Positions 59,610 to 64,000 of a stretch of DNA of 64,000 nt are shown in pieces; the stretch's first letter is position 1, and every line of letters starts with the position of its first letter. A program made the position numbers and the translations under genes. Source of the DNA: Podospora anserina. Taxonomy: Eukaryota. The stretch lies in NCBI GenBank assembly GCA_017654855.1, contig CM030332.1:5642001-5706000 (forward strand). Reading direction: 5' to 3'. The notes beneath the pieces were generated by a model. The model worked only from the letters and a program-made list of their open reading frames with translations, was not told the DNA's origin and did not search any database.

Positions 59610-61248
59610 TCAACTTCTCCCCCCTAACAACCTTCTCAACATAAGGACTTGTTCTCTTGCTCGAGTTTGCCGCTGCTCCACCTGATTGAAAATTACGCTG
59701 ACTACACCTTCCTGTAGCGTTTGTGGCGTTCTTCTATTGTGTTTCTGTCCATCGAAATCCGGTTCTTGATGTGCCTGGCTAGGCGGTGGAGGATGACCAA
59801 AGCCCAGCGCATGATCAAACTCGGCGTCATGTGTCGAAGCCACCGCCACCGATGCCGCCGCGATAAGCCCTTCGGAACCTTCGGGAGCGTCTTGTTGGCC
59901 AACTGCCAATGATCGCAAAGCACGATCTAGCTGCTCCATGAGATGGCTGATCAAGTTGGTCATGGCAAGCATCTGACTGTGCGATGAGCCAAAGAAGGCC
60001 CCCGTTGATGGCGTGTTGGGTGGTGTGGCTGCCTGACCCGAGTTGATTTGCGAGAGAAATGAACTGCAAAGATCTTCAAAAATGCCCAAGAGCATTTGGT
60101 GGGAGGCCAGAGCCATGAGAGAAATGGCAGTATCGGTAGCCTTGCTGATGGGTGCTGAGCTTCCTATGGCGCCATGGGGTATTCTATACACATCCGAACT
60201 GGCTCTCCTCCTTTCCAGGGGTATGTGGGGTGATATCATTTGTCGTGTGGCGTAACGGTCCATGAAGCTGATCAGTGAGCAGCCTGCATCGAAGATTTCA
60301 TTGATCGCTGGTGAAGCTACTGTCAACAGCGCTCGGGCGAGGGTACTCAACATTCTTCCAGCGCGATTGATGCGGAGGTTAGCTTGAGTGGCTTCTTCAA
60401 GAAGATTTTCGGCTGAGCCGGAAAACATCCATGTATTGTCGGTTGTCGCTGAGGTTGCGCTGAGTATGCTTTCGGAAAAAGAAGGCCCAAATTCACTACT
60501 GGAATCTTCGGCCGTATGTGGCAGAGGATGGAAGTGGTCCTGTCTATTTGGGAAATGACCTTGGTGTCCTGGCAACCCAAAGTCTGACAGAAGTGTTGTT
60601 GGAGTGTTCAAATCGGGTCTCCTATAGACAACGTCAAAGTTTGGCGATGCAGTTGTCGACAGAAGTAAGGGCGCTGTTCGGGATTGTGATTGTCTTTCAA
60701 TACCTGGCCTGGTCTCCGGTAGCGGGAAGTTGAATGCAGAGGGTCTCGGTGATAGGGACTGGGAATGAGTTGGGGAGAGTTCGGCTGGTGAAGATGGACA
60801 CCTGGATGACCGCCTCGCTCTTTTCCTAACCGGATGTCGGTGTACCCTTGGACGGCCGGACCGGAGCTGGGCTACAAGCAATGTCAGTACATGTAGCGGA
60901 TCTTAGAGCAGTCTAGTATTCCGGAAACATACGACTGAAAATGCAAACCGCCCCTGCCTTGGAGCACCTTGCACAAGGTATTGGCGCTATCACCGACCTC
61001 CCACGACTAGCTTCACTCTCTTCGCCTATGACCCCGAGACCGAGTGTATTGTTGTCATGCCCATCCGTGACACAGCGGACCTTGAGTTCGTGACAACGAT
61101 CGCACGACTGCCTCCTGGGCATGGGTGGTAGTGTGAGCTCGGCGATAGGCGGCTGCCCTTGCGATGGAAGGGTTGATGACATGGCGGAGCCGTGCACCCC
61201 AGACTCGACGAAGGAACCCGCCTCCTTGCTTGTCGTCTGTGCTTGCAT
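59610..61248 (-). CDS. Zn(II)2Cys6 transcription factor with AflR-like C-terminal region; intron 60872-60932
   Basis: RQSCDRCHELKVRC...PCARCSKAGAVCIFSPQLRSGRPR. Confidence 0.9.
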
Positions 61249-63367
61249 CGTGGTTCTTATATCAACTCCAGATCTGAGCTGTGGAGGTGGTGGCGTGAGG
61301 CAAGACTGTTGAACGCCAGCCTACGCATCCCCGTCCTTTGGGTCTCGGCTAACGCAGGGGGGGACGGGAGCTCGACCGAACGGTTGGAAAGGAGGTTCAG
61401 GGATGGGGAAGGACACTGGGCCTTATGGAATTGGTTTTGCCTCGCAATCTTGGTTGAATCTGTGGAACGGGGGTACAAGCAGGACTTGTTAGGGGCAGCG
61501 TCCGCTCCTCGGCGGCGCTGCAGCAAAAGGGAACCATCGAATGGGATGATGATCCTTCAGCATGAACCAAACAACGCCCCCGTGCCGCAGAGATGTTCGC
61601 CTATCAACAGGCACAGTCATCCGCAAGGCAAGTTCCACATGAGAATGTATCCGTCTGGCACGGCCTACTTTGGAAAATGCTGCCGGACAAGACTTTGCCA
61701 CCAGCATGGCAGGCAAGCGGATCATGTTGTCGTCTTTGCCTAGATCTTTCGAAATAGCGATGACCTGCAAACAAACAAGAGGGAAGCCCCAGACGCCACG
61801 TGATCTGTTCTTGTGCGGGAGCTCGTCAGGCGTTCTTTTGTCGATGTCGAGTCCCATGCGCCGCTCGCGTACTTGGTCCTCGACACTTTGATGGTTCGGG
61901 ATCTGGACGAAACCAGTCAGCAGTGACGATATATACGATGGGTTGAGCCAAGATGGGTAAGTCCCGCTTATGGCAACCAAGTGGCCAATCGTGTTGGTGG
62001 AAACCAACCAAGACCGTTGCGCACTGTTAATCCCATCCACAGGCGTTGCTGATCATGGCGATATCGTTAACCAGGCAAGCATCTCATCCTGTCTTCCTGT
62101 CATGGGAGACTGCCGTCCATCAGGATGTTCCTTCGGGATGGGTAAGGAAGGTGGGCGGGAAGGAGGGAGATAAGGAAGTTTGACGGGTGCTCCCGGGGCT
62201 CATTCGTAATGTTCAGTCCCCACGTGGTGTCGGCTTAGCTTGCCTGAGACAGCAAACGAGGTCGGACAGATGGTCCTCTAAGAATGCAGGGACAGGTCGA
62301 AAGGATCGTTCAATGCAACTGATGCACGTGTGTGGTGTTGAATGAGGGTGTTGTTCTTCCATTCAAGTTCAAAAAGAGGTTGGATCCACAATCCTCAAGC
62401 GAGACCTGGGCTAGATTAGCGGACTTTTGTCGGCGCTTAGCGCTGACTTTTGACGCCGCTATCGTGTGGCTCCTTCAACCACGGGCCAAGACGAAAGAAT
62501 TACAGTTCAGATCCCCTGCCCGTCGATAAAGCAACTTGAAAATCTTGATTCAGGTCGGTAACGAGGCTTCATGTAGTTTATCACACTGATTCTTTTGTCA
62601 AGTCCAGTCGGCTGGCACATAGAGTCATAAACTCGGCAACGAGCTATCACGGAGCCAAGAGCGTCTCGCATATCCAAAGTACCGAAGGATTTGAAGCAAC
62701 CTTCCTCCTGCTCAAGTCCGCTTGATACCATCCTATTTGGATGGCACCTTCCATCTGAAAAGAATCCTGAAAAGGCGGCAGGGGTAAAGGAAGATGACAT
62801 CTGCGCGGAATATTTGGTTCCAGACTAAGGTATGTAGATGATAGACTATTAGAAATTAGACCGGAACCTATCATTCTACAATATCCATCTCCCATTATAC
62901 AACGACACCAAGGCTTTTATTAGTATTATGAGAAACAATAGGAAATTTGTGGACCATTTGCCACGTATTTGAGACTTTTTGGAGGTCCCCTCATTCCGTG
63001 CTTACTTAATTCTATATCGTTCATGGAGGCTTTGAGCTTGAGGTTGTCCTCAGCGGGACTGCATAAAATCACATGACGGAGTGTCCTGTCTTCCATTGCA
63101 ACGTAGTAACATTGAATGGTGAAGTTGAATGGTGGAGTTGGTGGTGGACTTGTTAGGCATGGCGTTTTATGTCATCCATAAAATGTCGTTGGTGCTGCGC
63201 TGCTGCCTGCCGCTGCCTGTGCGGACCCAACTATTTAAGATCAAGGTTTCTTGCACACAAAATTCAGGTACCCCGCTCAAACCTAATCTCGTCCCTAACC
63301 TTGACTGAAGGCCTGGAATATATGTATTGGACCCAACTTTTTCTGTCAACTTCGCCCTTTTCGCACT

Positions 63368-64000
63368 ATGGCCCGAACAAAGCAAACTGCCCGGAAGTCA
63401 ACTGGAGGAAGGGCCCCACGGCGACGTCTACCATCAGGTATCATATGCATATATCCAGGTCCGAATACACAGATACGAAGGCCCACCACTACGCGTAAGG
63501 CACATTTGCTCAGGCCTCGACCGCTACCAACAGTAAAGCGTTTAAGTGAACAACAAGTTACCATGGCACCAACAAGACCGATGAAGCGGCAGAAGAGGAC
63601 CGGCACAACTCCAAGAAAACAATTACTGCCTTGGAATGGTTGTAGGAGAATGAGGCTGGAACCGCGCTACTCGCTGAGGCCTCGGCGGCAACAGACAGAA
63701 AAGCCTGAGAAGGACGAGCAGAACAGACGCAAAGCTAAACGTCAAGACCGGGCAACGAGAAGACGGAACAAAACCAAGAAAGTCTCTGCGGCCGTGACCC
63801 TTGTCACGCCCAAAGCCCGCACCACCCGGCGAACCCCTCTTGGGCTATTCTCCAGGCTTCCAAACGAGCTCATCTTCCAGATCATCTCATCTGACCTCGA
63901 CATACCAACACTCACCAATCTTCGCCGTGTGTGCAGGTTCTTCAAAAGCACCATCGACACAGGAGTCAAGGCCTATGCCGAATTGGCTCAGAAAGCTCCT
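63368..64000 (+). CDS. Histone H3 N-terminal-tail / F-box fusion protein (runs off the 3' edge of the window)
   Basis: Hand translation gives 211 stop-free codons: [21 protein letters not shown], a basic linker, then [40 protein letters not shown] (F-box, ~63839-63958). Confidence 0.8.
   Translation, partial: [211 protein letters not shown]

Follow-up and report, generated by a model that had tools for sequence, protein, structure and literature searches.

Neither histone mimicry nor F-box adaptors are new, the former being known mostly from viruses and from short convergent motifs. Influenza NS1 and G9a are histone mimics with H3-like motifs, while F-box domains are Skp1 binders and F-box proteins act as the substrate receptors of SCF complexes. 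F-box proteins of the KDM2A/KDM2B type act on chromatin, a KDM2A-SKP1 structure being the subject of one paper (PMC13237083). KDM2 proteins are tied to H3 biology in that they read or demethylate H3 via JmjC, CXXC, and PHD domains; to our knowledge, no KDM2 protein itself bears an H3 peptide. H3-like motifs in non-histone proteins, including SETDB1 and NOP16, reportedly engage histone readers or writers (PMC6028506; bioRxiv 10.1101/2025.01.21.634156 and 10.1101/2023.06.13.544862). The extreme N-terminus of PAF15 (PCLAF, vertebrate) is likewise H3-like and is bound by the PHD finger of UHRF1 in the H3 mode, and this H3-like end links PAF15 to a ubiquitin ligase (PMC7060239).

The locus described here lies at the end of a 64,000-nucleotide stretch of Podospora anserina DNA (the window) and encodes the front of an F-box protein with an H3-like start. 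The mimics NS1, G9a, SETDB1, and NOP16 consist of 4-6 residues that are convergent and stand internally or at the C-terminus, off the free N-terminus, whereas the Podospora tail is a 23-residue copy of the genuine H3 N-terminus including its start codon. PAF15 is, like the Podospora protein, a non-histone protein in which the first residues after Met resemble the H3 end. The likeness in PAF15, however, comprises a few residues and PAF15 is a ligase substrate, whereas the likeness in Podospora amounts to 18/21 residues and sits on the ligase's own adaptor subunit; the two proteins share no homology outside the tail, and the Podospora peptide, judging from its sequence, appears clearly to have been copied from an H3 gene. 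The KDM2 type shares only the F-box with the Podospora protein in sequence. Canonical histone H3 shares the first 23 residues (19/23) and the Met-Ala start, but the Podospora protein is without a histone fold and its remainder is unrelated. A near-complete H3 tail copied, as it appears, onto the true N-terminus of an F-box protein would be new. The author of the initial annotation knew of no described fungal protein of such architecture, and our literature search on histone mimics, F-box proteins, and Podospora chimeric genes found none either; no paper was found under the gene name Pa_1_16275, which was guessed from QC763_116275 and QC764_116275, the locus tags of annotated 408/409-aa relatives.

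The H3-derived N-terminal peptide occupies codons 1-23 (63368..63436, + strand). An identity of 18/21 to the H3 N-terminus had been claimed from the letters and was confirmed, the mismatches being only at residues 15, 19, and 20 when counted with the Met (R for K, R for K, and R for Q, respectively). The peptide is identical at 19/23 residues to the PDB chain 7uqj_G ('Histone H3', 25 aa, yeast-type), from which it differs, in H3 numbering, by K14R, K18R, Q19R, and A21P. The reported retention of R2, T3, K4, R8, K9, S10, and T11 and the presence of Arg at K14 and K18 (H3 numbering) are equally correct. The score of the tail against H3 was reached by 0/20000 composition-preserving shuffles, and a tblastn search with the H3 sequence over the whole 64-kb window gave 63368-63436 as its sole match (E 6e-7); there is therefore no true H3 gene in the window, and no H4-like motif was found in the window upstream of the gene. 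A chance origin of the H3 likeness is excluded. As for codon usage, A-ending codons account for 11/22 in the tail (63371-63436, + strand) versus 28% in the rest of the frame, and for 10-11% in two neighbouring ORFs, the excess in the tail having a binomial p of 0.024. Such an excess would be compatible with prolonged turnover at synonymous sites if the tail was captured from an H3 gene with biased codon usage.

The frame opened by the ATG at 63368-63370 is free of stops to the window end at 64000, as had been stated, and spans 211 codons (P0001). These codons (63368..64000, + strand) belong to an F-box protein gene of 408/409 codons, identified by its open frame, its relatives, and the contigs described below; the gene extends past the window end, and only its 5' part is inside. 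In protein searches, P0001 matched a cluster of ten proteins (90% cluster), and proteins of 408/409 aa from the Podospora anserina species complex aligned with it at 96-100% identity over its full length. The 408/409-aa members of this cluster, from Podospora comata, P. pseudoanserina, and P. pseudopauciseta, are annotated as 'F-box domain-containing protein.' The F-box itself covers residues 161-197 (63848..63958, + strand), where P0001 exceeds the curated Pfam cut-offs of both F-box-like PF12937 (E 1.4e-6, 28.4 bits versus 24.3) and F-box PF00646 (E 1.3e-4, 22.1 bits versus 20.5); the full-length protein P0009 (408 aa) is likewise above the Pfam F-box cut-offs. Residues 1-160 contain 48 K+R versus 7 D+E and have a pI of 12, so that the description of a clear F-box after a very basic linker stands. 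The absence of a histone fold was also borne out, since no Pfam histone family was found at E up to 1 in either P0001 or full-length P0009, and the PDB matches of the protein end after the tail.

An AlphaFold2 model computed from a 10-row alignment (mean pLDDT 50, pTM 0.36) gave pLDDT values below 50 at residues 1-113 and 133-156, which are predicted to be disordered, 73-83 in the F-box, and 40-72 in the C-terminal domain. Foldseek returned 0 matches in the PDB at E up to 0.001. Its rows to Skp1-F-box complexes were weak and non-significant (E 1 to 3.7; 34-41 residues superposed with an rmsd of 1.6-2.5 A), and the likeness to the Rad14/XPA zinc domain in the top rows (E 0.12-0.39) was discarded as unusable. 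The C-terminal domain (about residues 212-408) is conserved and Cys-rich, with five invariant Cys columns across five clusters; it matched no Pfam family and gave no Atlas hit of 0.9 or more, the top Atlas score for residues 205-408 being 0.86, under the level of a usable lead. The 408/409-aa protein thus has four parts, namely 23 H3-derived residues, a basic disordered linker of about 135 residues, the F-box, and the Cys-rich C-terminal domain.

Contigs of four runs from four studies were placed on 60000-64000. The runs had been labelled 'RNA?' by guess, and we take them as RNA because the neighbouring divergent gene (60000-62367, - strand) is spliced in 3/4 runs, whose contigs skip the 61-nt intron at 60872-60932 (CT..AC, that is, GT..AG on the minus strand). 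The region 63302-64000 is covered colinearly in 4/4 runs with 0 differing letters, 0 gaps, and no joint; the contigs, one per run, start at 63228, 63288, 63295, and 63302, and each reaches 64000. In 4/4 runs, one unspliced molecule therefore carries the tail, ATG 63368, position 63438, ATG 63563, and the F-box, which answers the question, raised in the initial annotation, of whether tail and F-box share one frame. A splice at 63438 (GTATCA) that would separate them, also raised there, appeared in none of the 4 runs; as contigs drop rare variants, a minor spliced isoform may exist. ATG 63368 is inside the covered molecule, as all four contigs begin upstream of it. Their starts define a zone at 63228..63302 (+ strand) with a TATA-like TATTTAA at 63232-63238, and are only a weak hint of the RNA 5' end. 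A 26-letter loose end on one contig is presumably sequencing adapter. The stretch 62412-62813 has no contig cover in 4/4 runs, nor has the sequence up to 63215 in three runs, and these gaps were not used as evidence. The tail-bearing product of 408 aa stands on 13 short Logan contigs, while the products from long contigs are 358/359 aa in length and terminate at a point past which the 408/409-aa forms run on; the two forms would be explained by an intron outside the window that has been removed in the short contigs. We have little doubt that this is a real chimeric gene that is expressed. Two further observations concern the neighbourhood. The ORF at 60913-61248 (- strand) has a Cys pattern that was read, by eye only, as a Zn2Cys6-type cluster, and the interval 62850-63101 between the divergent genes is occupied by one low-depth contig of 252 nt, in run X1 only.

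The first ATG on the four contigs is not that of the tail. It opens an upstream ORF of 58 codons plus stop (63322..63498, + strand) in a different frame, and this ORF overlaps the main start. The context of the upstream ATG, GAATATATGTA, is weak, with T at -3 and T at +4, while positions -3 and +4 of ATG 63368 are A and G (CGCACTATGGC), and under the scanning model many ribosomes should bypass ATG 63322 and reach 63368. Ribosomes that do translate the upstream ORF would next meet ATG 63563, the first ATG past its stop; this ATG shares the main frame and has a good context (GTTACCATGGC), and re-initiation there could give a tail-less product from M66. If most ribosomes took this route, starting at 63322, stopping at 63498, and re-initiating at 63563 (or starting there directly), the tail would rarely be made, and the gene model of Apiosordaria backusii, which starts with MAP like M66, agrees with such a product. 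We consider this quite unlikely in view of the contexts of ATG 63322 and ATG 63368, of three independent NCBI annotations that take the tail as the start, and of the coding sequence ahead of M66, codons 1-65 of which are open and in frame throughout the complex and codons 1-33 in Cercophora samala.

C. samala is the closest known relative. At E up to 0.001, phmmer retrieved 16 hits from 1.84 billion representatives, among which only P0013 of C. samala combines the tail with the F-box region. A word-indexed search with P0009 found 3 proteins among 2964 candidates, a family profile search of 5.8 billion proteins found 5 clusters among 6711 candidates, and a metagenome scan with the family alignment produced 104 pattern matches, none of which was confirmed. 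The family is thus, on these sequence searches, very small, fast-evolving, and lineage-restricted. Other proteins with H3-like sequence were also seen. P0015, P0018, and P0026 (Logan, 205-245 aa; from outside the window) each have an H3-like N-terminus followed by three internal H3-tail-like repeats; P0015 and P0026 matched no Pfam family, P0015 had no usable Atlas hit, and the three may constitute a separate family of H3-tail repeat proteins. P0003 (insect), P0020, P0022, and P0023 contain two or three whole H3 copies each, and P0016 (nematode) has three H3-tail-like starts. These five multi-H3 proteins were rejected as true fusions, as they look like run-on annotations of tandem histone genes. 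P0024, P0027, and P0028 matched residues 1-25.

The 340-aa C. samala ortholog begins MARTKATGRRSFGGRLPRRRLKSGIICCYPGPSA. It shares codons 24-33, is without residues 34-91, and joins the Podospora sequence at residue 92. The A. backusii model P0014 (315 aa, 44-50% identical) starts MAPVTRRSRMK and is tail-less as annotated. Scored against the H3 tail, its annotated N-terminus ranks first among 293 windows and aligns from the Met onward (8/23, shuffle fraction 0.0009); another window comes close to it, and an RPRKQQ motif underlies both scores. The likeness may be due to chance or may be the remnant of an earlier start that resembled H3. Within the Podospora cluster, the model of P0004 (339 aa) starts at a Met that replaces I28 and skips residues 75-117, either because the frame is disrupted in that species or because the gene was annotated in this way. 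In the ten-row alignment of the complex, where several rows come from the same species and the counts are consequently non-independent, the variable columns number 4/23 in the tail, 1/51 in the F-box, 27/147 in the C-terminal domain, and 55/409 in the whole protein.

It might be argued from such a record that we are looking at a young gene on its way out, which is transcribed but whose protein is under no selection. The narrow distribution, the large indels between close relatives such as the absence of residues 34-91 in C. samala, the P0004 model with neither tail nor residues 75-117, and the high variability of the C-terminal domain within the complex are all in line with this argument. A decaying protein would, however, hardly be expected to keep its F-box nearly invariant, five Cys columns, along with many other columns, unchanged in five clusters whose identity falls as low as 32%, and its full frame intact in 9/10 cluster members, in C. 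samala, and in A. backusii, and we regard this explanation as very unlikely.

The tail is followed by a second, decayed version of itself. After the rest of the first unit (codons 24-65, 63437..63562, + strand), which is basic (pI 11.7) and predicted to be disordered (pLDDT about 30), codons 66-88 (63563..63631, + strand) start at the in-frame ATG 63563, which the initial annotation had named as a possible alternative start, and encode a peptide that is identical to H3 at 10/23 residues, ungapped and in register with its Met. Its score was reached by a fraction of 0.00015 of the shuffles and ranks second of the 386 sliding windows of the protein (score 43, the next being 15). The DNA of the two tails (63563-63631 versus 63368-63436) is identical at 33/69 positions without gaps, a value reached by 54/5000 codon shuffles. 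Moreover, a direct repeat of 32 nt at 63508..63539 (+ strand) pairs, at 78% identity, with a second copy at 63673..63704 (+ strand), the spacing of 165 nt corresponding to 55 codons; 0/500 codon shuffles reached its local score. A gapped protein alignment of units 1 and 2 is colinear, with a local score of 40 that 260/2000 shuffles reached and that is alone non-significant; the claim of duplication draws on the comparison anchored to the register of the Met, on the scan of sliding windows, and on the repeat in the DNA. From these we consider it probable that the N-terminal unit, including the start codon, was tandemly duplicated.

The internal copy has PRKQL as in H3, whereas PRRRL is common to the N-terminal copy and C. 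samala, and in the C. samala sequence the leading part of unit 1 runs directly into the trailing part of unit 2. The fewest steps would be needed if capture came first and was followed by duplication, K18R and Q19R in unit 1, speciation, and, in C. samala, the loss of one unit through unequal exchange; alternatively, changes may have arisen in parallel. The identity to H3 is 19/23 in the N-terminal copy versus 10/23 in the internal copy (Fisher p 0.013). That the N-terminal copy is nearer to H3 is the sole result favouring a constraint tied to the free N-terminal position, with which it fits.

The expectation that orthologs conserve the tail held in part: the tail is found in 9/10 members of the 90% cluster and in C. 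samala, but the P0004 model is tail-less and the tail of C. samala has diverged. The latter is identical to H3 at 14/23 residues and to the tail of the window at 17/23, versus 217/312 for the rest of the protein, and the tail therefore evolves at the average rate of the protein. The changes in C. samala are Q5A, A7G, K9R, T11F, and A15L, so that the K9 (ARKS) motif is not kept there. Within the complex, the tail variants are A7S, R14K, R19S, and P21R (H3 numbering). On these alignments, conservation of the tail does not exceed that of the remaining protein, which evolves fast. The frame has nevertheless stayed intact while the two lineages diverged to about 70% protein identity, and both have MARTK, T6, R8, S10, GG, PRRRL, and SGIIC.YPGP in common. 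MARTK is the only stretch that is kept in all 10 tail-bearing sequences, in all of which GG is also invariant.

These rates bear on the explanation that competes most directly with mimicry, namely that the tail is a leftover of gene birth. An H3 fragment would have supplied the start codon, and perhaps 5' sequence, and the peptide would now be a generic basic stretch within a basic, disordered, nuclear-targeting N-terminal region, with no selected interaction that is specific to H3. The average rate of the tail, both against C. samala and within the complex, agrees with this, as do the loss of A7, K9, and T11 in C. samala, the decay of the second copy to 10/23 without loss of the gene, the predicted disorder of residues 1-113 in an N-terminal region of such high pI, and the tiny size and fast evolution of the family. 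A purely generic stretch would not, on the other hand, account for the significantly greater nearness of the N-terminal copy to H3 or for the invariance of MARTK and GG in all tail-bearing sequences, and from what is established about H3-tail enzymes, they would hardly ignore an exposed H3-like end in the nucleus. We hold the leftover explanation to be a real possibility, at somewhat less than even odds.

Our main reading is that H3 mimicry on an SCF adaptor is a selected function, which we regard as plausible, with a probability of roughly 0.4. For its origin, we infer that, once the A. backusii lineage had split off, a short 5' coding piece of an H3 gene, start codon included, was captured upstream of an F-box gene that already existed, and that the unit was then tandemly duplicated. 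The Met-Ala start would lead to removal of the Met as in H3, leaving an H3-like free end on a nuclear SCF substrate receptor, of which the basic linker would bring the protein to the nucleus and the F-box would bind Skp1. PHD fingers, chromodomains, and SET enzymes, which dock on the unmodified or methylated H3 end, would then be expected to bind or modify the tail, and such docking would couple the binders of the H3 end, or chromatin, to Skp1-Cul1. The block likeliest to matter would be A1-K4, since MARTK is kept in all tail-bearing sequences.

In favour of this reading are the H3 identity and the F-box in one frame, their place on one unspliced molecule, the tail in 9/10 cluster members, the frame kept in two lineages, the greater likeness of the N-terminal copy to H3 than of the internal one, and the precedent of PAF15. 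Against it are the average rate of the tail, K9R in C. samala, the tail-less P0004, the Arg residues that already replace K14, K18, and Q19, and the upstream ATG 63322; in addition, next to so basic a linker the tail may make no specific contribution of its own. A narrower form of mimicry, in which the tail would serve as a bait that captures factors with PHD fingers or SET domains and hands them to Skp1-Cul1 for ubiquitination, seems unlikely to us; the initial annotation had suggested such a bait for H3 readers or methyltransferases or, alternatively, a tether of an SCF complex to chromatin. Under the bait form, the N-terminal copy would have stayed H3-like and the internal duplicate decayed because a free N-terminus is required.

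In this gene, which is the cell's own, a near-full H3 tail stands at a true N-terminus and is joined to a ubiquitin-ligase adaptor, in a genetically tractable model fungus. If the tail is read like H3, the protein would provide a naturally occurring bridge from the histone-code machinery to degradation through SCF, and would be a clean case of a new protein function arising from a captured gene fragment of 70 bases. Even if the tail is neutral, the locus would still be a dated case in which a gene fragment was captured and tandemly duplicated and the two copies decayed unequally.
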